From the NCBI GenBank assembly GCA_041671365.1, contig JBAZBP010000001.1, positions 30,081 to 94,080 on the forward strand: 64,000 nucleotides of DNA, written 5' to 3'. The DNA is from Patescibacteria group bacterium. Its GTDB lineage: Bacteria > Patescibacteriota > Patescibacteriia > Patescibacteriales > UBA12465. Made by a program: the position numbers and the translations under genes. Below, piece by piece: positions 6,697 to 27,899 of this stretch (position 1 is the stretch's first letter; every line of letters starts with the position of its first letter). The notes under the pieces were generated by a model. That model was given only the letters and a program-made list of their open reading frames with translations, was not told the DNA's origin and searched no databases.

Positions 6697-7266
6697 ATGA
6701 TAGTTTCTTTGAGTGGAGCCCTGGGTTCCGGAAAAAGTACAATTGCTCAAATGTTGGCCGATAAATTAGGGTGGCCGCGATATTATATGGGTGGTTTAAG
6801 GCGGGCGGCAGCCGAAAAAAAAGGAATGACTTTAGCGGAATATAATAAATTAGGAGAGACTGATATCTATACTGATCAAGAAGTTGACGAATATCAAAAA
6901 AAATTGGGCCAAACACAGGATAATTTTATTATTGAGGGTCGAACTTCTTGGTATTTTATTCCTAATTCATTAAAAATTTATCTGGATGTTGATTCGGAAG
7001 AAGGGGCAAAAAGAATTTTTAGTAGTTTACAAAAGAAAAATAATCGTAATGAGGATCGAGGACTTGAGAGCGTAAAAGCAGTGCGAATTAGCGGGGAAAA
7101 TAGATTAGCTAGTGATCGCTTAAGATATCAAAAATATTATAATATAGATGTTAATGATAAAAATCATTACGATTTTTATCTCGATACTACGAATTTAAGT
7201 CCGGAGCAGGTTTTTACGACTGTTTATGATCAAATAAAGACCAGGCTTGACAATAAGAAATATTAA
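6697..7266 (+). CDS. Cytidylate kinase-like (NMP kinase family) protein
   Basis: 189-aa ORF with P-loop GALGSGKST at the N-terminus. Size and pattern fit short CMP-kinase-family proteins. Confidence 0.6.
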   Translation: MIVSLSGALGSGKSTIAQMLADKLGWPRYYMGGLRRAAAEKKGMTLAEYNKLGETDIYTDQEVDEYQKKLGQTQDNFIIEGRTSWYFIPNSLKIYLDVDSEEGAKRIFSSLQKKNNRNEDRGLESVKAVRISGENRLASDRLRYQKYYNIDVNDKNHYDFYLDTTNLSPEQVFTTVYDQIKTRLDNKKY

Positions 7267-9746: not shown

Positions 9747-9775
9747 TTGACAAGATAAAATATTTTTGCTATGAT
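9747..9775 (+). promoter_or_regulatory. Sigma-70-like promoter upstream of tRNA-Asp
   Basis: TTGACA (9747-9752), 17-nt spacer, TATGAT (9770-9775), about 90 nt upstream of the tRNA. Confidence 0.45.
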
Positions 9776-9863: not shown

Positions 9864-9937
9864 GGAGTGGTAGCTCAGTTGGTTAGAGCGCCTGCCTGTC
9901 ACGCAGGAGGTCGCGGGTTCGACCCCCGTCCATTCCG
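9864..9937 (+). tRNA. tRNA-Asp (anticodon GTC), no encoded CCA
   Basis: Acceptor ggagtgg/ccattcc, anticodon stem cctgc/gcagg with loop ctGTCac, T-arm gcggg-ttcgacc-cccgt. Confidence 0.9.
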
Positions 9938-9981
9938 CTAATAAAAATATCCTAACTTTGTTAGGATATTTTTATTATTGT
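9922..9981 (+). repeat. Direct repeat copy 1 (60 bp): tRNA-Asp from mid T-loop to its 3' end, plus the terminator
   Basis: Identical base for base to 10134-10193 by direct comparison of the two strings. Confidence 0.95.
9943..9978. terminator. Bidirectional hairpin terminator (copy 1)
   Basis: 13-bp perfect stem aaaaatatcctaa / ttaggatattttt with loop ctttg. A-run on one side and T-run on the other. Confidence 0.75.
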
Positions 9982-10133
9982 ACGAGTTAGGGGGTCGAAC
10001 AGGTCAGAAGCGAGACACGAGACGAGGCGGAAGCCGAGGCGAGTAGACGAGCGATCGCAAAGTATCCGGGGGATACTTTGCGCTGACCCCGGACAAGTGA
10101 GCTCGCCGCAAAATGGCGGCGAGCGAGCGCGAA
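9982..10133 (-). repeat. GC-rich tRNA-trailer module, copy A (tRNA-Asp associated)
   Basis: 152-nt GC-rich island in AT-rich DNA. It starts with gggggtcgaac (9990-10000), the reverse complement of the tRNA-Asp T-loop/T-stem gttcgaccccc. Perfect hairpins at 10057-10081 and 10102-10123. Shares blocks (gaacaggtcagaagcgag, cgagcg repeats) with copies B-E. Strand is given as the one on which the GTTCGA motif reads forward; this choice is arbitrary. Confidence 0.8.
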
Positions 10134-10193
10134 ACCCCCGTCCATTCCGCTAATAAAAATATCCTAACTTTGTTAGGATATTTTTATTATTGT
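10134..10193 (+). repeat. Direct repeat copy 2 (60 bp): partial tRNA-Asp 3' end plus terminator
   Basis: Identical to 9922-9981. It ends exactly at the base opposite the discriminator of the convergent tRNA-Arg. Confidence 0.95.
10155..10190. terminator. Bidirectional hairpin terminator (copy 2), shared with tRNA-Arg
   Basis: Same 13-bp stem hairpin as 9943-9978. It abuts the 3' end of tRNA-Arg on the minus strand. Confidence 0.75.
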
Positions 10194-10264
10194 GCCTCCA
10201 GGGGGAATCGAACCCTCATCTTGAGTTCCGGAAACTCACGTTCTATCCATTGAACTATGGAGAC
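10193..10264 (-). tRNA. tRNA-Arg (anticodon CCG), no encoded CCA
   Basis: Minus-strand cloverleaf: acceptor gtctcca/tggaggc, anticodon stem tgagt/actca with loop ttCCGga, T-arm gaggg-ttcgatt-ccccc. Confidence 0.85.
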
Positions 10265-10336
10265 TTATTAAGCTGATTATTGAATAATTATTTAATAAAA
10301 TCAAGCGGGGATAAAGAAAATGATTATTAGATTTAA

Positions 10337-10730
10337 TTAAATGTCGTCGTTGTACGATGAATAATTTATAGTCAGTTCCTCACCTTTTTTAATATTTTTT
10401 AACGCGAAAAAGTCATATTCCCGGTCAAACCTAACGTTTGGTTTTTTTGAGTCATTTAGATACCAAGCGACCGTTAAATTATTGAAATTATCCGGACAAC
10501 CATATTTATTGCCTTTAATAACGCAAAAATCATTATATAATTTTTTAATTTCCGGAGTTAATTTTTTAACTACAGATCTATCTAGCCAGATCATTTCCGT
10601 TGTATCGCCTAGAAAAATATTTTTATCTTTAGGAATATTTTTAATAGCAAAAACACCTACCCCGTGTATTTTAGACGGACTTAATTTTGTATAAACGTTG
10701 TTGTGTGGAGATTTTAGATTTTTTTTTCAT
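10337..10730 (-). pseudogene. SET-domain protein gene, frame broken at an A9 run directly after the start codon
   Basis: Track ORF 10337..10594 ends ...GEELTINY (SET C-terminal motif). The same frame continues upstream as KLSPSKIHGVGVFAIKNIPKDKNIF (SET N-terminal strand) with no ATG/GTG/TTG. An ATG at 10730-10728, in an ATGA overlap with the upstream gene stop, is one frame off; A9 lies at 10719-10727. Confidence 0.6.
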
Positions 10731-11800
10731 AAAATCTTTTTTATTTTCTTTAAAACAGAGCGGCCCAACTTATGATTGAAGTTTTCAAAAACTAGAGCTA
10801 AAAAATTATAATCTGATTGATAACCGACTAATTCCATAAAACCGACCCCCTTGATTTTTTTATTTTTTACAGTCCCGCTAATATCTAGTGGTCCTTCCCA
10901 ATAATTAATTGCCCCAAAAACCATTTCTTGATCCCGCAGCATCGCTTTTAGTTTGAGCTTTATTTTTTTATTAGGAATTTCAATCTCCCATTCTAACGGG
11001 TACTTGGCTTTCGTTTTTAAACTTGTAAAAATTTTTTTACTCGGTTTTAAAATAAAATAATTATAATGTTCAGTATTACCTCGCTTATCAATAATATCGA
11101 CTAAATAGTCTCGTTGTTCTCCAATTCGGTATTCAATACACATTATATCTGTGCCATCTGATAATTTTAAAGAAAACCAGGACCAGGCATCGCGGTTATA
11201 GGCAACATCGGCCCACTGATGATCCATCCAGGCGTGGCCGGTTACTTCTAATGGCTTATTATCGATATTAATTGTTCCTTTAACCGCCAAATCAGTTAAA
11301 GAATAATAATAACTTTTTCGCTGGCAGACGTTGATGAATCCTTGACCGCCTTCAAAAAGCGGTTTTTTTCTGGCGCTTAGAGATAAATCTAATTTGGAAT
11401 TTTTTAGATGGAACTTCGAGGCTTTTGTCTCCGCAATTTCACAATTAATATAGCCGCTGGATAAAAGCAAAGGATCAAAATAATTAGCATAAAGCAGGGG
11501 GCGCTTGAAACTATCACCGGACATTATCGAAATATTTTGGATATCTTTATAGGTTTTTTGTTTGGTAATATCGGAAACGACTGAATGCGCAAAATAAATA
11601 TAGGGAGTGTTTAATGTTTTTTCCAAAAGTATTTTTAAGTACGGAATTTTTGCTCTTTTTAAATCCGCTTTAAATAAACAATCCATGAAAGTATAACGTC
11701 GACCGGCCGAATCATTTAAATAACCATTAAAATACCACCATTCAATGATGCTTTTGTGGGATTTTTCGTCCTGAGGTAAATGAATTGGTTTGTAATGCAT
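10727..11800 (-). CDS. AttH/CrtC-like lipocalin-fold protein (hydroxyneurosporene-synthase-like)
   Basis: 357-aa ORF with EWWYFNGYL near the N-terminus, YYYSLTDL...GHAWMDHQW, WSWFSLKLSDG and INYWEG motifs characteristic of the CrtC/AttH family. Confidence 0.65.
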   Translation of the reverse strand: MHYKPIHLPQDEKSHKSIIEWWYFNGYLNDSAGRRYTFMDCLFKADLKRAKIPYLKILLEKTLNTPYIYFAHSVVSDITKQKTYKDIQNISIMSGDSFKRPLLYANYFDPLLLSSGYINCEIAETKASKFHLKNSKLDLSLSARKKPLFEGGQGFINVCQRKSYYYSLTDLAVKGTINIDNKPLEVTGHAWMDHQWADVAYNRDAWSWFSLKLSDGTDIMCIEYRIGEQRDYLVDIIDKRGNTEHYNYFILKPSKKIFTSLKTKAKYPLEWEIEIPNKKIKLKLKAMLRDQEMVFGAINYWEGPLDISGTVKNKKIKGVGFMELVGYQSDYNFLALVFENFNHKLGRSVLKKIKKIL

Positions 11801-11872
11801 ATTTTTATTAGAAAATTATGTCTCTTGTTTTTTGCGCACCGTGGTCATCAATAACAAGCACGATGTTTTTGT

Positions 11873-12442
11873 CTATTTCTTAATTAAATTTTGGAATTCT
11901 TCAATCAACACTGGAGCCTCAGTAAAACCATCTTCTTTAGTGATATGTCCCGCATTTCTGAGTATAACAATTTTTGATCCTAATTCAGTAAATTTCTGTT
12001 TGTTTTCTTTAAAAGCTCCAAAAGGATCATTATCAGAAATTAATAGAGTTGATTTTAAAAGAATCATTTTTATTTTTTCAATGTTGATAGGATTTTCAAT
12101 CCAGGGTTTGGCAATTTTTTCTGTTTCTTCATCTTCAAGATTTTCAAGATTAAACCAGCCAGCAACAAAGAGAGCGCCGCCAACGACGGTGTCGATTGTC
12201 TCTAAGTATCTTAAAATCGTTTGACAGCCAATTGAATGTCCAATGAAATAAGTATTAGAATCGGGAGTACCAACAACTTCAGCGAGTTTCTCAACCCATT
12301 TTTTTATAACAGGAGTATCAATGTCCGGCATGTCTGGTAATAGGATTTGATACCCCAACTTTTCCAATTCTATTTTAAGCCAAGGCCTCCAATCACCTTG
12401 TGCTCCAGCCATCCATTGATGAACAATAATTATTCTTTTCAT
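11873..12442 (-). CDS. Alpha/beta serine hydrolase (YdeN/RBBP9-like)
   Basis: About 189 aa from MKRIIIVHQW (ATG 12442). Nucleophile elbow GHSIG. Size and pattern fit the small Ser_hydrolase family. Confidence 0.65.
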   Translation of the reverse strand: MKRIIIVHQWMAGAQGDWRPWLKIELEKLGYQILLPDMPDIDTPVIKKWVEKLAEVVGTPDSNTYFIGHSIGCQTILRYLETIDTVVGGALFVAGWFNLENLEDEETEKIAKPWIENPINIEKIKMILLKSTLLISDNDPFGAFKENKQKFTELGSKIVILRNAGHITKEDGFTEAPVLIEEFQNLIKK

Positions 12443-12584
12443 ATTTTGTTGCGTCAGTAAGATCGAGCGCACTTTCTCTTTTACATCAGATTATGCACCG
12501 ACCTAAATAGCTCTGATTTTCATGAATATAAATAGACCAGTATTTATAATCTTTTATTAAAGATTTTGAATAATCTTTTTCCAT
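12430..12584 (-). pseudogene. Possible remnant of a HIT-like gene (N-terminal part only, in-frame TGA)
   Basis: The minus-strand reading from ATG 12584 gives MEKDYSKSLIKDYKYWSIYIHENQSYLGRCII, then TGA (12488-12486), then in-frame CKRESALDLTDATKYE. The W..l...Q.YLGRC...KR....L.dLT pattern recalls one HIT subfamily from memory. The reading runs into the hydrolase gene. Confidence 0.3.
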
Positions 12585-12906
12585 AAATAAAATATTTTAT
12601 TTTTTGCTGTTTTTTTACTTCTTATACGCTTATTATATCATACTGTTTCCGGAGTGGGAAAGATTATGGCCACCCAACGACCGAGCCTATTCAGGGATTT
12701 TTATCAAAAGAAATTATAAGAGGGCAAGACTAAAAATGTTTGTATAGTAGTCGTGATGAAAAAAATGATTCAGGTGATCTACGTGATACTAAAAAAATAA
12801 AGCCCCTTTGTGGAAAAAGAAGCTTGATGGCAACATAGATAGGTGGAAATTAATAAATCTAAACTTTATCAAATTTTTCTAAGATTTCTGGCTTAACTCG
12901 ACTAAT

Positions 12907-13554
12907 CTATTTCTCTGCCTCAGATAAAACTTTCTCAAAAATTAAATCGTAGGTGTTGTCCAAAAACTGATGAGACTTCTTAATGGTTCTCCTGTCTAGA
13001 TTGTTCTGAATTACTTTTGTAACAAAACCCATATTCTCGGCTGAGACTATATCTTCTTTGACGCCATCTTGCCAAATCAATAAGCCTTTGTCTTCTATAA
13101 CTCTAAATGCTTCCCTAATCGCTTCATCCACCAATTTTCTAAATTCAATTTTATTTAATTCGATAAATTTTTTAAATTCTTTCTTTCTTGCATCTCTTTT
13201 GTCCGACATAACCTTAATTCTTAATCGCTTAAATTCTTCCGAGGAATCGCCCTGAGAGCCACCCAGAGCAGAAACAAACAAAGCGCCGACGGAATTATCT
13301 TTAATGGGAAACTTTCTGATGTCACCCCTGAAGTCGATCTTTCCCCTCCTGGATGAATCGTGGAGATTAGAGATAAAAATTTTTTTATCCAAATTATTGA
13401 CATTAATTAATTCATAACCTCTAATAGTTGGGCCAGCTGCTTCAATTAACGGACCCTTTAATTCTTTCAGTTTTTCTTCCACATTAAAATTGGCCTCATG
13501 ATAATTTTCGAGAGCTTCTTTGTTTATCTTTGGTGGCATTTCTGCAAAATTCAT
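12907..13554 (-). CDS. Hypothetical protein, weakly class-I methyltransferase-like
   Basis: 215-aa ORF. LIEAAGPT and GDIRKFPIKDNSVGALFVSAL loosely resemble SAM-MTase motifs I and post-II. No firm family assignment. Confidence 0.45.
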   Translation of the reverse strand: MNFAEMPPKINKEALENYHEANFNVEEKLKELKGPLIEAAGPTIRGYELINVNNLDKKIFISNLHDSSRRGKIDFRGDIRKFPIKDNSVGALFVSALGGSQGDSSEEFKRLRIKVMSDKRDARKKEFKKFIELNKIEFRKLVDEAIREAFRVIEDKGLLIWQDGVKEDIVSAENMGFVTKVIQNNLDRRTIKKSHQFLDNTYDLIFEKVLSEAEK

Positions 13555-13587
13555 ATAATTTTATACTAAACATGGAAACAAATTGAA

Positions 13588-13629
13588 TGAGGAGGGGGTG
13601 GCACGCACTGGGAACGGCGTTATCTAGTA
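13588..13629 (-). repeat. tRNA-Ser-3'-end-like motif, copy F1
   Basis: tgaggagggggtggcacgcactgggaacggcgttatctagta aligns at roughly 85 percent by eye with 16602-16640. It lies directly after the stop of the radical SAM gene. Confidence 0.45.
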
Positions 13630-13658
13630 TTTTTATTAAATTAGCCTAGATTTTGATT

Positions 13659-14633
13659 TTAAATCTTTACTTTATTCCAATACTTTTCACGAGGGGGACA
13701 GCTGAAATACTTATTTGCTCTGAACTCTTTAGCTTTATTAGTTTTCCAAATATTAGTCAAAGAATATTTTTTAATGTTTCCTAATAGTACTCTGGAACCA
13801 GGACAGGCATAAACATTACCAAGAATATCGACAAATGAAGCATAATGCCATTGAGTACAAGGAAATCCGCCTATATAAGGAAGGGTGGCATTATATTTTA
13901 TTTTAAACTCTTTTACATCAATTTTTTGAGCCTTCTTATATAGTTCGATTAGGTCCTTTTTCGAAATTTCCCATTTTTTATATTGCAAAGCTCCGCCAGT
14001 AGGAATAAAAGTTTTAAATGATGGAAAAATATTATTTTTCCTACAGAATCTAATCATGTCTAAAATTTCATTCTTATTTTGCCTAACAATAATAGAGTCA
14101 AACCCCAATCTGGTTGGCTTAGATTTATTAAACCCCGTCTTCATTAATATTTGAAAAGCTTCATTCCTTGATTTGGCATACCCCCTTCTGCCGACTAACT
14201 TATCTTGAGTTGTTTCTTCTAATGAATTAAACTTAAGCATTATCGAGCAATTTAAATCATAAAGATTTTTTGCTTTTTCTTCAGTTAATAAGATTCCATT
14301 GGTATAAATTATAGGGATTATTTTTCGACTTGAAATATACTTTATTTGTTCAAAAAAATTTGGATCGGCCAATGGCTCTCCAGCCCCAACAATTTTGATT
14401 GTCTTACATCCTAATTTTTTTGCCTGATCAATAAGTTTCTTCCTTTGTTTTATGGTTAATTCATTACCTAAAACAATGTGCTTTTTGGAATATTCATCGC
14501 GATAGCAATAAGGACAGTTAAGATTGCAGATATTTGATGTTTCTGCATCAAGCATTAACATTAAATTATTCTTTTTTGCTTTTTGAATTTCTTTTTTCCT
14601 GAAATTCCATCCTCTTAACATCGGTATAGTCAT
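13659..14633 (-). CDS. Radical SAM enzyme with C-terminal twitch/SPASM-type cysteine motif
   Basis: CNLNCPYC (CxxxCxxC) near the N-terminus, a GAGEPL glycine-rich SAM motif, and C-terminal C-x12-G-x4-C (CTQWHYASFVDILGNVYAC). Confidence 0.8.
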   Translation of the reverse strand: MTIPMLRGWNFRKKEIQKAKKNNLMLMLDAETSNICNLNCPYCYRDEYSKKHIVLGNELTIKQRKKLIDQAKKLGCKTIKIVGAGEPLADPNFFEQIKYISSRKIIPIIYTNGILLTEEKAKNLYDLNCSIMLKFNSLEETTQDKLVGRRGYAKSRNEAFQILMKTGFNKSKPTRLGFDSIIVRQNKNEILDMIRFCRKNNIFPSFKTFIPTGGALQYKKWEISKKDLIELYKKAQKIDVKEFKIKYNATLPYIGGFPCTQWHYASFVDILGNVYACPGSRVLLGNIKKYSLTNIWKTNKAKEFRANKYFSCPPREKYWNKVKI

Positions 14634-14652
14634 AAATTACAGTTTTATTAAT

Positions 14653-15321
14653 TTATTTTGACGCTTTAAGCTCAGTCCAAAGCATTACCCTGTTTAAAAT
14701 TTTAGAATCAATGATTTTCAACCCAGATTCATAGGCCAATCTTTCCACGTCTTCAGAACTATATGCCTTTGATTTCAATCCGCTCTGAGAATAAAATATC
14801 TCATTTTTCTCGTCAATATGACGAATTTTTATGTCGACAGCCTTATACCAATTTTTTCTATTCTCCAACGTTCCTTTAAGATAGGTTGTAATAACTATGC
14901 TCTTTTCAGTCACCTTATTAAGTTCTTTTAAAACCATAACTTCATCTTCAACATTTCCTAATGTATTCCAGACACAGAGACTAAAATCAAAATATTTTTT
15001 TGAAAAAAATTTATTTAAATTTTTTAGGTCAACATTTTCTATTTTTACATTAGAAAAATTATCTGCAATCTTTATAGATTCTTCTAGCATGAGTCTGGCG
15101 GTATCAACTCCCATAAACTCAGAAACTAACGGAGCTATTTCTGGAATAAGTCGGCCAATACCGACACCGGCCTCTAAAACTCTCTTGGCGCTACGAACCT
15201 TTTCTTTTAATAATTTAGTTTCTTGACGAATATATTCTTGATATTCTAGCGGGTAATACTCCGGGATTAGAGCTTTAAAAGGAAAATTTTTAAAATCTTC
15301 TCCCTCAAAAAAATTGGACAT
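14653..15321 (-). CDS. Class I SAM-dependent methyltransferase
   Basis: Motif I VLEAGVGIGRL. About 222 aa from MSNFFEG (ATG 15321). 19-nt gap to the radical SAM gene. Confidence 0.75.
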   Translation of the reverse strand: MSNFFEGEDFKNFPFKALIPEYYPLEYQEYIRQETKLLKEKVRSAKRVLEAGVGIGRLIPEIAPLVSEFMGVDTARLMLEESIKIADNFSNVKIENVDLKNLNKFFSKKYFDFSLCVWNTLGNVEDEVMVLKELNKVTEKSIVITTYLKGTLENRKNWYKAVDIKIRHIDEKNEIFYSQSGLKSKAYSSEDVERLAYESGLKIIDSKILNRVMLWTELKASK

Positions 15322-15370
15322 ATGATAATTATTATCTATATAATTATACCACAAAAAATCATAAACTAAC

Positions 15371-15555
15371 CGCTAGTTCGCTGTCTCACTTATCCTCTGG
15401 CAAGTGGGTCTTCAGAATTTACTAAAAATCCTTGTATTTACGGGGTTCATGGGTTTATCCGATGCTAAATTGTCTTGGCGTGGAGGGGGGGGCTGCCTGC
15501 CGGCAGGCAAGGATTTCTCGCGCTCGCTCCCGACCTGTTCGAACCCCTTTTCGAT
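15371..15555 (+). repeat. GC-rich tRNA-trailer module, copy C (diverged, no intact tRNA neighbour)
   Basis: Ends ctcgcgctcgctcccgacctgttcgaacccc (GTTCGAACCCC at 15537-15547), like the other copies. Hairpin tgcctg-ccgg-caggca at 15494-15509. Upstream block ctcacttatcc resembles ctcacttgtcc in copy A. The 5' boundary is uncertain. Confidence 0.6.
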
Positions 15556-15559
15556 ATGC

Positions 15560-15593
15560 AAAATTAAAATACCCAATGGGTGTTTTAATTTTC
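15560..15593. terminator. Bidirectional hairpin terminator next to module C
   Basis: Stem aaattaaaataccc / gggtgttttaattt (with G-U pairs), loop aat, flanked by A and T runs. Confidence 0.6.
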
Positions 15594-15677
15594 TACGCGG
15601 AGTGTTATAGATGTTATCAGAACTGAGATGTTTAAAAACATCAGCAAACATTAAAATTTTTCGCTCGCCCGATATAA

Positions 15678-16334
15678 TTAATTTAATTCTAAAAATTGAC
15701 CCTCACTAATAATTTTCACATCACCGTTGTCAACCTTCACCGCTGACATATCATCCAGAACATAAATTTTCTTTTTAATATCCTTGGTTGCGCTTAAAAC
15801 ACCTTCTTTGTTTCTTAGATAAAAATGAGGACTATTATAATGAGGAAGCGCATAAAAATCAACAAAATTAAGCCCAGATAAATTTTCTGTTTTTTCTAAA
15901 TCTTCTTCATATAATTTCTGCAAAATATTTAATATTAAATCCGGACTAACAATCATACTCCCGGCACTAATACCGACATAAACTTTTGTTTTTAAAAATT
16001 CCGGCAACAAAGCAGCCAAACCGGATTTGCTCACCCATTCCATAAGATGAAAAGTGTTTCCACCCTCAAAAAATAAAATATCTGCCTTTTGCAATTGAGG
16101 CTCCCAAATATTTCTATCGACGGCGGAAATATCAACTATGCTTATAGACTGTAAATTTAATTCTTTGAGAGTTAAAAGATCTTTAATCACCCATCGTTTA
16201 TCTCCCTTTTCCACATTGGAAGCGGTGGGAATAAAAGCTAGAGATGTTTCCCTCGGCCTTTTACTGACTAAATCAAAAAGGGCTTTTTTAATAGAATCAT
16301 TGGAAATGCCGGCTGATGTTAATAATAATTTCAT
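15678..16334 (-). CDS. Peptidase E-like / S51 family (type-1 glutamine-amidotransferase-like fold)
   Basis: 218-aa ORF. MKLLLTSAGI start, FFEGGNTFHL and GISAGSMI (nucleophile Ser) motifs typical of dipeptidase E relatives. Confidence 0.7.
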   Translation of the reverse strand: MKLLLTSAGISNDSIKKALFDLVSKRPRETSLAFIPTASNVEKGDKRWVIKDLLTLKELNLQSISIVDISAVDRNIWEPQLQKADILFFEGGNTFHLMEWVSKSGLAALLPEFLKTKVYVGISAGSMIVSPDLILNILQKLYEEDLEKTENLSGLNFVDFYALPHYNSPHFYLRNKEGVLSATKDIKKKIYVLDDMSAVKVDNGDVKIISEGQFLELN

Positions 16335-16423
16335 ACAAAATTAATAAATATTGAATAATATAATTATAGCTAAAATTATCGAAAAAATCAATTTAATCTT
16401 AAATTAGGACCATAATATTTTAC

Positions 16424-16564
16424 CTACGCTCGCCGTCGCTCGCTCATTCGTTGTCCAGAACTTGCGTCCGACCTGCCCCCGGCAGGTCGTCAGACGCTCG
16501 CTGCAATATTCGCCTGCTGGCGAATATTTAGCTCGCTTCAAGTTTGTTCGAATCCCGTCGACGA
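16424..16564 (+). repeat. GC-rich tRNA-trailer module, copy D
   Basis: 109/113 identity between 16444-16556 and copy E 26090-26202 (counted by hand). Perfect hairpins at 16469-16489 and 16505-16528. GTTCGAATCCC at 16546-16556 differs at 1 of 11 positions from the tRNA-Ser T-loop/T-stem gttcaaatccc. Confidence 0.8.
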
Positions 16565-16566
16565 AT

Positions 16567-16601
16567 AAAAAAACAGCAGCATAAAATGCTGCTATTTTTT
16601 T
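16567..16601. terminator. Bidirectional hairpin terminator between module D and motif F2
   Basis: A7 run, stem agcagc / gctgct with loop ataaaat, then a T7 run. Confidence 0.65.
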
Positions 16602-16640
16602 ATGCGGAGAGGGTGGGACGCACTTGGAAAGGTTATCAAG
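16602..16640 (-). repeat. tRNA-Ser-3'-end-like motif, copy F2 (candidate att remnant)
   Basis: Plus-strand tgcggagagggtggga (16603-16619) matches the 3' end of the tRNA-Ser gene (18470-18486) at 16 of 17 positions, in the same orientation. The rest aligns with F1. Confidence 0.55.
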
Positions 16641-16645
16641 TAATC

Positions 16646-17527
16646 CTATTTTGAAAATTTGAATGTTGCCAGTATTCCATTACCAATTGCAATGGGATCA
16701 AAATTCTGGTCCTTGTTGGCTGGGCGCTCCATTATTTGTAACCAGGAAGCATCAAAAAATACTGCGATAATCTGGCCAGCACTATCGCCCTCAAAACCGC
16801 CAATATCAGTTCCCTTGATAGCAAGGAATGATGAACCATCAACAACGATTTGTGATTCCTGCCAATTCTTTAACGATTTTTTATATGAAGCTATTATACT
16901 TTCACGAGTATTACGTTCGTCGTATCTATTTAGATAAAAAAATGAGTTATCACCTCCAATATCTGTCGTATAATATGGAGATTTTGCTATAAGAATATGA
17001 TTTTGAGCCTCCTTCACTTCAAACCCGGAAGGAACTTTAAACGACAGAGTAAAATAAGATGATTTAAATGGGAGCCAATCCGTAGAGAGTTGAGAAACTA
17101 ATATCATTTCTAGATTTTTATTGGTAATTCCTAGCCCTAGATTTCTCATAATATTAAAAGCGTCAGTAGGATTACCTAAAAAATACATCTTTAAATTAAC
17201 CGGATTAACATAATAGGCTTTTCCGCTATCTTCAACTTTTAATAGGATCTTACCTGATAATCTACTAGGGGCTAGTTCATTAAATAAATTAAAATCTTTA
17301 TTGGAAATACCCAGTCCCAATTCACGCATAACTTGAAAAGCATCGGCTGGTCTTCCTAAAAAATATCTCTGAGAATTATTAGGATTAACATACCAAGCTT
17401 CACCACGAGATTCTACTTGCAAGAGAATCCGTCCTTTTAATCGGCTAGATGTATCGCCGGCAAAACTATTATTAAAAGGGAAAAATAATAAGATAGCGGT
17501 TAGGACAAGGAAAATAATTTTTTTCAT
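16646..17527 (-). CDS. Secreted protein with two tandem ~55-aa repeats, unknown function
   Basis: Start at MKKIIFLVLTAILLFFPFNNSFAG (signal peptide, ATG 17527). The repeat SRLKGRILLQVESRGEAWYVNP...GLGISNKDF is followed by SRLSGKILLKVEDSGKAYYVNP...GLGITNKNL. Confidence 0.65.
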   Translation of the reverse strand: MKKIIFLVLTAILLFFPFNNSFAGDTSSRLKGRILLQVESRGEAWYVNPNNSQRYFLGRPADAFQVMRELGLGISNKDFNLFNELAPSRLSGKILLKVEDSGKAYYVNPVNLKMYFLGNPTDAFNIMRNLGLGITNKNLEMILVSQLSTDWLPFKSSYFTLSFKVPSGFEVKEAQNHILIAKSPYYTTDIGGDNSFFYLNRYDERNTRESIIASYKKSLKNWQESQIVVDGSSFLAIKGTDIGGFEGDSAGQIIAVFFDASWLQIMERPANKDQNFDPIAIGNGILATFKFSK

Positions 17528-17558
17528 AATGTTTATGGTATGATATTCTGATTTTGAA

Positions 17559-18242
17559 TTACCTAAATCGAAAACTCTTATAAAATTCTTCAAAATTATT
17601 AGATTTAACGGCCCCATTAGATAACACATAAGTTATCTGATTCCTTTCCACCACCACAATATTAAATTCCCACGTCGGAATATTTTTCTCTAGTTCACTA
17701 TTAGTTATAACTAATAATGTTCCAGCCAAACCATTAATTACCACTGGTAATTTCTTGATTATAGAATGCCCGGCACGATCTTTCTCCGTCAATTCTTGAT
17801 CAGAAATTACCCGCGCCGCAGATCTATTGGTATCAATGTTAATAAATAATTCCCCATCATTATTTGGGTCTTGATTATTTTTTCCAAAAGCTACTCCAGT
17901 CGATGTTGAGGAACCAAATATTTTCCAATCCGCTGGATATTTTACTTCATAACCGTATTTTTCGTTATGATAGGTTTGCCAATCCGTATTAGTTTGATTG
18001 GGAATAATTGAACTATTACTATTTTGATTAGCTGAGTTTGTTTTTATCGCCTCATTTTCTTTTAAAAGCTCACCATTCTGCTTTTTCAAATCTTGAACCT
18101 GGGCATTTAAGTTATTGGCCTGCTCTTGTGATAAAGAAACAGGTTGATTCGACGCCGAATTATCAACCACCGGCTTTTGCGTCAATGAACAGCCTGCTAT
18201 TAGCAGAGCCAAAATTGGAAACAAAATTAAAATCTTTTTCAT
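17559..18242 (-). CDS. Lipoprotein, unknown function
   Basis: Signal plus lipobox MKKILILFPILALLIAGC, a low-complexity Q/N-rich linker, then a globular C-terminal part. Confidence 0.65.
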   Translation of the reverse strand: MKKILILFPILALLIAGCSLTQKPVVDNSASNQPVSLSQEQANNLNAQVQDLKKQNGELLKENEAIKTNSANQNSNSSIIPNQTNTDWQTYHNEKYGYEVKYPADWKIFGSSTSTGVAFGKNNQDPNNDGELFINIDTNRSAARVISDQELTEKDRAGHSIIKKLPVVINGLAGTLLVITNSELEKNIPTWEFNIVVVERNQITYVLSNGAVKSNNFEEFYKSFRFR

Positions 18243-18436
18243 AAAATTACATCAAAATGATTAATCTAATTTAAAATTACCACAAAACCCTCAAAAAATC
18301 AATTTTAGTAAAGGTAAAAAAATATTAGACTAATGACTTTGGAACGCTAATTTTTTCTTAAACATTAAAAAAATACACTAATTTACTCCAGATTATTCGT
18401 AACTCCCTGCAACGCTTTGGAACTATATGGATATCA

Positions 18437-18462
18437 AAAAATAAGGCGTTAACCTTATTTTT
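18437..18462 (-). terminator. Rho-independent terminator of tRNA-Ser
   Basis: 10-bp stem aaaaataagg / ccttattttt with a 6-nt loop, 10 nt past the tRNA 3' end. Confidence 0.65.
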
Positions 18463-18471
18463 GACAATCTG

Positions 18472-18558
18472 CGGAGAGGGAGGGATTTGAACCCTCGATG
18501 CCCTTTCAGGCATACCGGTTTTCGAGACCAGCGCACTAAACCACTATGCGACCTCTCC
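18472..18558 (-). tRNA. tRNA-Ser (anticodon CGA), no encoded CCA
   Basis: Minus-strand cloverleaf: acceptor ggagagg/cctctcc, anticodon stem ctggt/accgg with loop ctCGAaa, long variable arm atgcctgaaagggcat, T-arm gaggg-ttcaaat-ccctc. Confidence 0.9.
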
Positions 18559-26056: not shown

Positions 26057-26067
26057 AAAAACACAGG

Positions 26068-26076
26068 TTATCCACA
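26068..26076 (+). promoter_or_regulatory. DnaA-box perfect consensus (TTATCCACA)
   Basis: Exact match to the canonical 9-mer. Same orientation as the box at 26048 and 20 bp from it. Confidence 0.35.
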
Positions 26077-26085
26077 GATTTTAGT

Positions 26086-26210
26086 ACGGTCATTCGTTGT
26101 TCAGAACTTGCGTCCGACCTGCCCCCGGCAGGTCGTCAGACGCTCGCTGCAATATTCGCCTGCTGGCGAATATCTGGCTCGCTTCAAGTTTGTTCGACTC
26201 CCATTACAAT
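26086..26210 (+). repeat. GC-rich tRNA-trailer module, copy E (tRNA-Cys associated)
   Basis: Near-identical to copy D. Contains gttcgactccca (26192-26203), which is the T-loop/T-stem of the convergent tRNA-Cys in inverted orientation (12/12). Hairpin at 26115-26135. Confidence 0.8.
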
Positions 26211-26216
26211 AAATTT

Positions 26217-26254
26217 CAAACATAAAAGACAGCCGATGCTGTCTTTTATGTTTG
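26217..26254. terminator. Bidirectional hairpin terminator shared by tRNA-Cys and module E
   Basis: caaacataaaagacag-ccgatg-ctgtcttttatgtttg: a long perfect stem that directly abuts the tRNA-Cys 3' end. Confidence 0.7.
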
Positions 26255-26328
26255 AGGCTTGAGTGGGAGTCGAACCCACGAATGGCAGTTTTGCAAACTG
26301 CAGCGTTAGACCACTTCGCCATCAAGCC
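26255..26328 (-). tRNA. tRNA-Cys (anticodon GCA), no encoded CCA
   Basis: Minus-strand cloverleaf: acceptor ggcttga/tcaagcc, anticodon stem gcagt/actgc with loop ttGCAaa, T-arm gtggg-ttcgact-cccac. Only 26 nt downstream of the tsaD stop. Confidence 0.9.
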
Positions 26329-27569: not shown

Positions 27570-27641
27570 GGTCCCTTCGTCTAGTGGTTAGGACGTCAGG
27601 TTTTCATCCTGTTAACAGGGGTTCGATTCCCCTAGGGACTA
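27570..27641 (+). tRNA. tRNA-Glu (anticodon TTC), no encoded CCA
   Basis: Acceptor ggtccct/agggact (G1-U72), anticodon loop ttTTCat, T-arm agggg-ttcgatt-cccct. Closely parallels the E. coli tRNA-Glu layout. Confidence 0.9.
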
Positions 27642-27647
27642 CTAACT

Positions 27648-27679
27648 AAAAAATACTCAGCGTATGTTGAGTATTTTTT
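27648..27679. terminator. Bidirectional hairpin terminator after tRNA-Glu
   Basis: aaaaaatactca-gcgtatgt-tgagtatttttt. Confidence 0.7.
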
Positions 27680-27690
27680 AGTTTATATTC

Positions 27691-27834
27691 AAGGTGGGGA
27701 ATCGAACAGGTCAGAAGCGAGCTTAACCGAAGGCCAGTAGGCCGAGGTGTAGCGAGCGTCGGACGAAGCTCCGGGGGAGCTTCGGACGCTGACCGCGACA
27801 ACGAACGAGCGGACTGGTCCGCGAGTGAGGCGAA
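27691..27834 (-). repeat. GC-rich tRNA-trailer module, copy B (tRNA-Glu associated)
   Basis: Starts with ggggaatcgaac (27696-27707), the reverse complement of the tRNA-Glu gttcgattcccc (12/12), then gaacaggtcagaagcgag as in copy A. Hairpins at 27764-27784 and 27809-27822. Ends ggcgaaa just before the repeated tRNA 3' end. Confidence 0.8.
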
Positions 27835-27851
27835 ATTCCCCTAGGGACTAC
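27835..27851 (+). repeat. 17-bp direct repeat of the tRNA-Glu 3' end (attcccctagggactac)
   Basis: Identical to 27626-27642 inside tRNA-Glu. Flanking bases differ on both sides. Confidence 0.85.
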
Positions 27852-27899
27852 GGATAAAAAATAGTTTTTATTAAAAATAAAAACCACTAATCAAAAAAA

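Follow-up and report, generated by a model that had tools for sequence, protein, structure and literature searches.

Genes for tRNAs and for transfer-messenger RNA (tmRNA) are classic landing sites of genomic islands, and to our knowledge the elements that land there all bring or borrow a recognizable integrase. In this study, we analyzed a 64,000-nucleotide stretch of DNA from a Patescibacteria group bacterium (contig JBAZBP010000001.1 of assembly GCA_041671365.1; the whole stretch is called the window below), in which a 212-bp unit without an open reading frame (ORF) lies behind a tRNA-Asp gene. The unit combines a GC-rich core, that of element A, with a duplicated tRNA 3' end and a short inverted copy of the tRNA T-arm. 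Element A belongs to a widespread family of ~150-nt GC-rich, folded, non-coding elements situated behind tRNA and tmRNA genes, an element class that is apparently undescribed. Our favored interpretation, held with moderate confidence, is that the 212-bp unit belongs to a group of non-autonomous, site-specific mobile elements. These would insert into the 3' part of tRNA and tmRNA genes and, we infer, be mobilized in trans.

Integrative elements that target tRNA and tmRNA genes are described with tyrosine integrases and with a sublocation in the T-loop (Williams 2002, as cited in bioRxiv 10.1101/2020.12.28.424599). Our elements resemble them in the duplication that runs from the T-loop to the 3' end, the restoration of the gene by the incoming copy, the use of tmRNA as a target, the fixed orientation, and the existence of occupied and empty sites. 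They differ in that they have no integrase or cargo and measure only ~200 bp; moreover, neither their folded, covarying core nor their inverted copy of the T-arm is known from attP sites. Of the features that define a tRNA-targeting integrative element, we found the att repeat and the occupied and empty alleles, and did not find an internal integrase. Tycheposons, which encode tyrosine recombinases and replication modules, integrate repeatedly at tRNA genes, and this pushes older material outward and produces cassette arrays with partial tRNA copies (Hackl et al., bioRxiv 10.1101/2020.12.28.424599). Here, too, arrays of cargo split by partial tRNA copies lie next to a full tRNA gene, together with degenerate remnants. 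Unlike in tycheposons, no tyrosine recombinase or replication module was seen in the loci examined, and what recurs, in Patescibacteria and Lachnospiraceae, is a small, non-coding, structured element.

The direct repeat at the tRNA-Asp locus was noticed in a preliminary description, which reported identical 60-bp copies around a 152-nt GC-rich core, placed the repeat edges in the tRNA-Asp T-loop and at the discriminator of the convergent tRNA-Arg gene, and likened the layout to attL and attR of an element at the tRNA-Asp 3' end. All of these statements were borne out. A repeat search recovered two copies with 60 of 60 nucleotides identical and 212 nt from start to start, and the core between them has a GC content of 62% (64% at the peak of a 100-nt sliding window), compared with 36% for the window. 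The left edge of the repeat lies between T-loop positions G57 and A58 of tRNA-Asp, and the right edge, 10193, is complementary to the discriminator base of tRNA-Arg. Both copies contain 16 nt of the tRNA-Asp 3' end and a perfect 18+18-bp AT-rich palindrome. The other direct-repeat families in the surrounding 3 kb are all at most 27 nt long, none of them with a second perfect copy, and by our own estimate the chance expectation for a perfect 60-mer repeat in 64 kb is ~1e-27. Like an att site, the repeat duplicates the tRNA 3' end while the gene itself stays whole. The most unusual feature of the locus, which the preliminary description had overlooked, lies near the start of the core and is a segment, called invT here, that is the reverse complement of part of the tRNA-Asp T-arm.

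Element A is one of five family copies (A to E) in the window, the other four of which were found via other GC-rich islands. The motif TCGAACN5GRAGCGAG occurs five times in the window, with 0.06 occurrences expected, and a stricter sequence pattern matched 40 metagenome contigs. A covariance model (R1) built from 17 copies identified 57 copies in 40 metagenome contigs and the window, and 4 further copies in genome contigs. A 14-base pattern was unspecific on genome contigs, giving 118 matches that were chiefly chance hits in GC-rich genomes; the covariance model confirmed 4 within the first 100 loci. The element is present in dozens of Patescibacteria genomes. Two of the four genome-contig copies belong to a variant in metagenome-assembled genomes of gut Lachnospiraceae (L091 3482-4030 and L071 1895-2440), which is shorter, lies directly behind the tmRNA gene, contains an invT (GAGGGGAATCGAAC) that matches the tmRNA T-arm, and is bordered distally by a 17-nt duplicate of the tmRNA 3' end; no integrase was found downstream at either of these loci. 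When this locus and eight others were compared with Rfam 15 at permissive E values (up to 10), only the tRNA and tmRNA genes scored, and the core gave matches at chance level. No match to the element was found in IMG/VR (2.9 million viral contigs) or in phage and plasmid collections, where the only phage matches were to the tmRNA 3' end, and our search of the literature, including the motif surveys of the Breaker laboratory, found no description of such an element. The statement in the preliminary description that the unit encodes nothing therefore has to be revised, since its core is a conserved, covarying folded element found in many genomes.

Nearly all copies show the same order: a tRNA gene (or a partial 3' half of one), an AT-rich palindrome of ~40 nt, a spacer of 10-17 nt, invT, the core of ~135 nt, a conserved end, a direct copy of tRNA positions ~58 to 74-76, which we call H, and usually a second palindrome. 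The two ends of the element differ, the left one being the palindrome and the right one reading GAGGCGGAA or GCGCGA(A/T)A. The host genes encode Ser, Gln, Gly, Glu, Cys, Ala and Asp tRNAs and tmRNA. The invT segment is the reverse complement of T-arm positions 53 to 63-66 and has a length of 11-14 nt, for example GGGGGTCGAAC at Asp, GGGGAATCGAAC at Glu, GGGAGTCGAAC at Cys and GGGATTCGAAC at Ser. It starts 51-63 nt from the tRNA end, and the whole unit spans 204-217 nt, a range that includes the 212 bp reported for the tRNA-Asp locus. The insertion point is always directly 3' of GTTCG/A, and the upstream tRNA is called intact by ARAGORN and Rfam. The duplicated block measures 16-19 bp in 13 other tRNA-adjacent copies, whose flanking palindromes are unrelated, compared with 60 bp in A; hence the long duplication is not a property of the mechanism. 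An ordinary transposon target-site duplication was rejected, as transposon-type terminal inverted repeats are lacking and the repeat has no fixed length (16-19 bp across the family, 60 bp in A). We also rejected a retroviral type of copying of mature tRNA that stops at m1A58, because the H copies have the genomic base after the discriminator and not CCA, and a minihelix or acceptor-stem mimic, because the spacer has no complementarity to positions 64-72.

The invT segment matches the adjacent tRNA over 10-14 nt. In copies located behind protein genes, invT is closer by 1-2 bases to the downstream H than to the upstream 3' half, which was the case at six of six loci (L129, L130, L134, L142, L154 and L159). 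Cores that are 94-98% identical are found at Ser, Gln, Glu and Gly tRNAs, each with fitting invT and H; those of L123 (Ser) and L141 (Gln), for instance, are 98% identical. It follows that the scaffold is far slower to change than the segments matched to the tRNA. Position 59 of tRNA-Asp is C in the window and G in three relatives (L165, L167 and L169), and the window's C59 is repeated in the downstream H (10134-10139), with the complementary G in invT.

The core is a conserved, strand-specific fold. RNAalifold and the model alignment gave five helices: P0, which closes invT with the start of H, the long-range helix P1, and the hairpins P2 to P4. In 52 distinct sequences, 95% of the alignment cells contain standard pairs, and 38 of the 44 pairs show changes on both sides, including 6 of 6 pairs in P1 and 7 of 8 pairs in the apical helix of P3. 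The P1 pairing GGTCAG/CTGACC of element A covaries with AACTTG/CAAGTT, GGTTGG/CCAACC and GGGTTG/CAACCC. None of 500 shuffles reached the observed pairing, and sliding the partners reduced pairing to 33-42%. The covariation alignment was fitted to the model, which somewhat favors structure, and the helices were already visible in plain MAFFT alignments. The non-Watson-Crick cells comprise 80 G-U and 27 A-C, and because of this excess of G-U the tRNA-sense strand must be the folding strand. GGAA loops are found in the type-2 copies, among them A, and a tandem G-A internal loop in P2 of the type-1 copies; the CC-GGG-GG tip of P3 is invariant. The pentamer RCGAG occurs eight times on the purine-rich top strand of A and once on the other strand. 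For a read-through transcript (window 9864-10193), the predicted minimum-free-energy fold (z = -8.7) pairs the 5' acceptor strand of the tRNA with the distal H and the T-arm with invT; in this predicted fold the 212-nt unit resembles a giant T-arm insertion.

We collected orthologous loci via the neighboring DksA-like gene and observed presence or absence of the element, and turnover of its subtypes, at orthologous sites. The preliminary description had proposed to look for an empty site made up of tRNA-Asp, one terminator and tRNA-Arg, and L169 (GCA_942492765.1; 81% protein identity) has exactly this arrangement, with a single palindromic terminator before the convergent tRNA-Arg gene. The same site in L167 (83% protein identity) is occupied by a different mini-element of ~65 nt with a partial invT and one hairpin, flanked by a perfect 18-bp H repeat and two diverged copies of the terminator of that lineage. 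Other genes follow tRNA-Asp in L165 and L166, and the contigs of the closest relatives (L161-L164; DksA 93% identical) end inside tRNA-Asp and are therefore uninformative. It had also been proposed that diverged repeats in all relatives would indicate an ancient fixed structure. Diverged repeats are indeed present in L167, but L169 is empty and L165 and L166 are arranged differently, and the site is therefore polymorphic rather than anciently fixed. Elsewhere, L134 and L153 have the upstream piece, palindrome and core in common with L151 and differ from it in H and the downstream sequence. Compared with L126, L127 has an extra 0.8-kb cassette encoding an HNH nuclease and a second element copy, and the junctions share only GCTC with the tRNA end. 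Tandem element copies are found in L121, L128 and L133, and the TsaD/tRNA-Cys locus has differing element subtypes in the window, L137, L145 and L158. At L167 2520-2690 and L150 900-960, the place of the full element is taken by mini-elements that comprise no more than a partial invT, a single GC-rich hairpin and H; they may be deletion derivatives or a minimal functional unit. Short-read unitigs from several runs (L119, which ends at window position 9891, and L161-L164) all end within tRNA-Asp, 5' of the T-loop, which suggests that strain variants of the tRNA-Asp region co-exist in the samples.

Why the repeat is 60 bp long at this locus requires a separate explanation. The flanking palindromes are unrelated at all other element loci (those of L132 and L133 are weakly similar), and the 60-bp repeat is therefore not a signature of the family. 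For the same reason we rejected a general duplication of H and terminator that decays with time, as the palindromes are unrelated everywhere but at copy A. The long repeat is confined to the tRNA-Asp/tRNA-Arg locus with its shared terminator, where it recurs in diverged form in L167. The window copies are identical to each other and unlike the terminator type of L169 and L167, so the duplication or homogenization must be recent and independent of that in L167. This agrees with the recent event or homogenization suggested in the preliminary description, as the perfect identity post-dates the divergence from the L169/L167 type. Copy A is no isolated oddity and is the most recently changed copy of the element class. 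We infer that the repeat was extended either by duplication at insertion or by later homogenization. In the first case, insertion would have duplicated the target from A58 through the end of the terminator; an insertion that deprived tRNA-Arg of its terminator may be selected against. In the second, an ordinary 17-bp event would have been followed by conversion of one terminator by the other, in a tract bounded by H on the left and, on the right, by the short homology between GGGGGTCGAAC (invT) and GGGGGAATCGAAC, located 7-8 nt past each copy. The latter sequence is the antisense tRNA-Arg T-arm as read on the plus strand (window 10194-10213), which follows repeat copy 2 after 7 nt in the way that invT follows copy 1. 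As it nearly equals invT in both sequence and offset, the convergent tRNA pair naturally imitates the layout of tRNA, palindrome and invT, and this may be a clue to the origin of the family or to the 60-bp homogenization.

Several classes of small elements and structured sites share some of these features. Cis-mobilizable elements (CIMEs) and elements like miniature inverted-repeat transposable elements (MITEs) have recombination or target repeats and no enzyme gene, and are presumed to be mobilized in trans. Our elements are like them in their flanking repeats, the lack of an enzyme gene, and the presence of truncated and tandem copies; they are unlike them in that no autonomous partner with the same ends is known, transposon-type terminal inverted repeats are missing, and the target segment varies with the tRNA. 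Integron attC sites, with the motifs RYYYAAC and GTTRRRY, and attP(+) of CTX phage are recombination sites formed by a folded single strand. Shared with these are the conservation of structure over sequence, the single folding strand, an invT-H pairing that could rebuild a target-like duplex, the cassette arrays, and the "empty" cassettes. In contrast to attC, the segments TTCGAAC and GTTCGAA each have two mismatches to the core motifs, no link to IntI or Xer was seen, and the paired segment is tRNA-specific. We therefore rejected an integron attC site: only the conserved single-strand fold agrees, and the core motifs do not match and no integrase was seen. Repetitive extragenic palindromic (REP) sequences and their doublets (REPINs) with REP-associated tyrosine transposases (RAYTs), as well as palindromes derived from IS200/IS605, are GC-rich intergenic hairpins moved by an enzyme encoded in single copy elsewhere. 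The elements are similarly non-coding, strand-specific and rich in GC-rich hairpins near terminators, but REPINs are simple hairpin doublets without a target-matched segment or tRNA specificity, and no Y1 transposase was seen here. A group I or other self-splicing intron was rejected because the tRNA is complete upstream, the core has only ~135 nt, and there was no match to Intron_gpI or gpII.

If the unit is a mobile element, it would insert behind position 57, keep the gene intact, and leave positions ~58-74 duplicated on both sides in att fashion. The AT-rich palindrome would terminate the tRNA, and the right end of the core would adjoin A58 of the displaced 3' half, H. The tRNA-sense strand, folded as single-stranded DNA or as RNA, would join invT and H into helix P0, and P0 or invT alone could present, recognize or mimic the T-arm as the target of a recombinase whose gene lies at another place in the genome. 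A number of observations weigh against this interpretation. We clustered 270 neighboring ORFs all against all and ran Pfam on 150 of these and on the cargo ORFs; no linked integrase, transposase, reverse transcriptase, Cas1, TnpB or IS110 was found among the 25 commonest Pfam families listed for the 150 neighboring ORFs or among 30 window ORFs. A search of the 57 copies and their flanks, of IMG/VR and of phage and plasmid collections gave no autonomous relative. There is also no sigma-70-like promoter between palindrome and element, so transcription of the element would require read-through. Both the GNRA-type loops and the conserved purine-rich joining regions are as compatible with a functional RNA as with a recombination site, and the 60-bp duplication requires a special explanation because the flanking palindromes are unrelated elsewhere.

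The RNA-like features raise the alternative that the elements are a family of host non-coding RNA genes, in which a structured RNA, co-transcribed with its cognate tRNA or produced beside it, would act on the tRNA or its gene via invT as antisense to the T-arm and H as an extra 3' half. Possible roles are tRNA processing or quality control, a decoy function or the donation of 3' halves, and the copies would have spread when they were duplicated along with tRNA 3' ends. The strong covariation, the strand asymmetry, the GGAA tetraloops and the tandem G-A internal loop, the fixed orientation and distance relative to the tRNA, and the predicted read-through fold are consistent with such a role, as are the strong sigma-70-like promoters upstream of tRNA-Asp (9747-9775) and tRNA-Glu. 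However, the palindromic terminator separates the tRNA promoter from the element, which has no promoter of its own, and there is no matching Rfam family. The patchy presence (the orthologous site is empty in L169 and holds an unrelated mini-element in L167), the truncation and loss of H in three of the five window copies, and the tandem copies and copies behind protein genes also fit poorly with a host gene, which we regard as rather unlikely. An enzyme directed by RNA or guide DNA would account for the matched segments in another way. The core would be a scaffold like the IS110 bridge RNA or the TnpB omega RNA, invT would pair with the top strand (53-63) and H with the bottom strand (58-74), and an enzyme encoded in trans would cut or recombine at 57/58, with the T-loop GTTCG as a motif like those adjacent to such targets. 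Bridge RNAs of IS110 elements are encoded next to a DEDD recombinase and have internal loops that bind target and donor. Our elements have in common with bridge and omega RNAs a conserved scaffold of ~150 nt, short target-complementary segments that appear reprogrammable, and a 16-19-nt 3' segment identical to the flanking target. Indeed, invT and H overlap on positions 58-63 and jointly cover both target strands, near-identical scaffolds carry different target-matched segments, H matches a TnpB-type guide in its length, its 3' position and the terminator after it, insertion always occurs directly 3' of GTTCG/A, and a cassette with a small HNH nuclease lies between two copies in L127. On the other side, no IS110, TnpB, IscB or TnpA gene was seen near any copy, there is no similarity to HEARO or IS605-type RNAs of Rfam and no promoter, the target-matched segments pair with each other, which in the free molecule would mask the guide, and the comparison itself is an analogy. 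An IS110 bridge RNA proper was rejected, as there is no adjacent ORF and the matched segments are terminal (P0) and not in internal loops, and so was an IS200/IS605 or TnpB omega RNA, with no tnpA or tnpB seen nearby and no Rfam match at E values up to 10. We judge guided insertion of this kind to be unlikely. The most novel proposal, held only tentatively, is that the core serves as a new kind of programmable guide or scaffold, whose folded strand of ~150 nt would grip both strands of the T-arm through invT and H and direct a trans-acting enzyme to insert or copy at 57/58; a new tRNA target would then need only a few base changes in invT, and the element would be a tRNA-specific analogue of bridge RNAs and attC in Patescibacteria and Firmicutes.

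Decay of something larger is a further alternative: the unit could be the dead remnant of a phage-, ICE- (integrative and conjugative element) or tycheposon-like tyrosine-integrase element, reduced to its non-coding arm near attP between attL and attR. A lambda-type attP is similar in size to the ~212-bp unit, the eight RCGAG repeats on one strand are possible arm-type binding sites judging from their sequence, and arrays of partial tRNA halves and accessory cassettes lie nearby. A repeat from the T-loop to the 3' end is also the classical att pattern at tRNA genes, as Williams (2002) is cited in bioRxiv 10.1101/2020.12.28.424599. Random decay would, however, not yield the same boundaries in more than 40 copies and a constant unit of 204-217 bp, the helices covary with arbitrary stem sequences, unlike double-stranded arms that bind a protein, and no copy is joined to an integrase or present in the 2.9 million viral contigs or the phage and plasmid collections, which makes a remnant improbable. 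The most trivial explanation, an assembly artefact or a plain local tandem duplication (1.28 copies of the 212-bp unit), could produce a perfect repeat, and this one is short enough for an assembler to collapse or expand. However, an independent Logan unitig, L120 (run SRR18595301), exactly equals window 10164-16456 and has its start 30 nt (k-1, with k=31) into the second copy of the repeat, the point at which the edge of a true repeat forces a de Bruijn graph to branch. The core is also unique sequence, with homologous elements at further loci and in further genomes, and hence does not derive from duplicated local DNA, and L167 has the same duplication of H and terminator in diverged form; we consider an artefact very improbable. 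If, as we favor, the element is mobile in trans, it marks a recombination system in genomes that are generally regarded as having few mobile elements, and may account for small accessory cassettes that build up beside tRNA genes. If the matched segment is a guide, the element would be a compact, naturally reprogrammable targeting module, and on the most conservative reading it is a new class of structured motif absent from Rfam.

Table 1. Positions of the element copies, their parts and the associated features (window coordinates unless another locus is named)
Feature	Position	Strand	Details
tRNA-Asp(gtc)	9864-9938	+	ARAGORN; Rfam 69.7 bits; last 16-17 nt, from A58, open repeat copy 1
Repeat copy 1	9922-9981	+	H (tRNA-Asp positions 58-73/74, 9922-9937), AT-rich palindromic terminator 9939-9977, TTGT
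Element A, core (152 nt)	9982-10133	+	A42 C36 G58 T16; covariance-model match 9988-10147, 75.7 bits, E 4.7e-16
invT of A, GGGGGTCGAAC	9990-10000	+	Reverse complement of tRNA-Asp positions 53-63 (GTTCGACCCCC, 9917-9927); pairs with start of downstream H (helix P0)
Helix P1 of A	GGTCAG 10002-10007 with CTGACC 10083-10088	+	Encloses P2 and P3
Hairpin P2 of A	~10026-10036	+	GGAA loop
Hairpin P3 of A	10057-10081	+	Invariant CC-GGG-GG tip
Hairpin P4 of A	10101-10124	+	GCTCGCCGC-AAAATG-GCGGCGAGC
Conserved right end of A, GAGCGCGAA	10125-10133	+	Adjoins A58 of second H copy
Repeat copy 2	10134-10193	+	H 10134-10149, identical palindromic terminator 10151-10189; ends at tRNA-Arg discriminator
tRNA-Arg(ccg), convergent	10192-10264 (ARAGORN), 10193-10264 (Rfam)	-	ARAGORN, Rfam
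Element E, fragment	15434-15549 (locus 15434-15623)	-	16.9 bits, E 0.086; only invT and start of P1
Element C, orphan	16406-16558 (locus 16406-16630)	-	107 bits; 3' truncated
Element D	26057-26204 (with tRNA-Cys to 26328)	-	Behind tRNA-Cys 26254-26328 (-); 92 bits; invT GGGAGTCGAAC; 3' truncated, no H copy
Element B, complete	27695-27848 (with tRNA-Glu 27570-27853)	+	Behind tRNA-Glu(ttc) 27570-27642; covariance model 172 bits
Cassette array	15400-18558	-	
Cassette array, L123	5519-8600		
Cassette array, L134	3770-5433		
Cassette array, L159	5750-9411		
Cassette array, L130	3183-4602		

Besides A, element B is complete (Table 1), with invT GGGGAATCGAAC at 27696, a 17-bp repeat (ATTCCCCTAGGGACTAC) at 27626 and 27835, and flanking terminators that are unlike each other. 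The right end and the H copy are gone from C, D and E. The core of C is 88% identical to that of D, and ahead of C lie a partial 3' half resembling that of a tRNA-Ser (16603-16618) and a palindrome.

Copies away from tRNA genes sit behind diverse protein genes, each of which ends in a module of 28-30 nt and an AT-rich palindrome. The module, GTTC(C/G)RA-N5-TCCC..CTCCGC, is like a tRNA 3' half with five extra T-loop bases and an end like the 3' side of an acceptor stem. Such modules recur every 0.5-2 kb in arrays beside tRNA genes, where they separate small accessory genes for S51 peptidase, methyltransferases, PsbP-like, Bro-N, RhuM, Fic, HNH and NUDIX proteins. The stretch of the window from tRNA-Ser(cga) (18471-18558) down to ~15400 has this array character. 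By analogy with tycheposon islands, the arrays look like the product of accretion at tRNA seeds that leaves partial tRNA copies behind. Two cassettes lie between pairs of element copies: one at L127 9323-10054 encodes a 135-aa HNH endonuclease and has a 104-aa ORF, and another at L143 10961-13423 encodes a Fic/DOC protein and has a 399-aa ORF, part of which weakly resembles an IS3 transposase (E 2.6e-4). The HNH cassette and the IS3-like match were the only enzyme leads, and neither is recurrent. Element E is interrupted by a 12-bp GC palindrome, CCTGCCGGCAGG (15496-15507), which also occurs, identically or as a near-identical variant, in L152 (~2080-2110) and L137 (~7215-7245). Its position differs between the three elements, and this palindrome may be mobile in its own right, as a still smaller second element.

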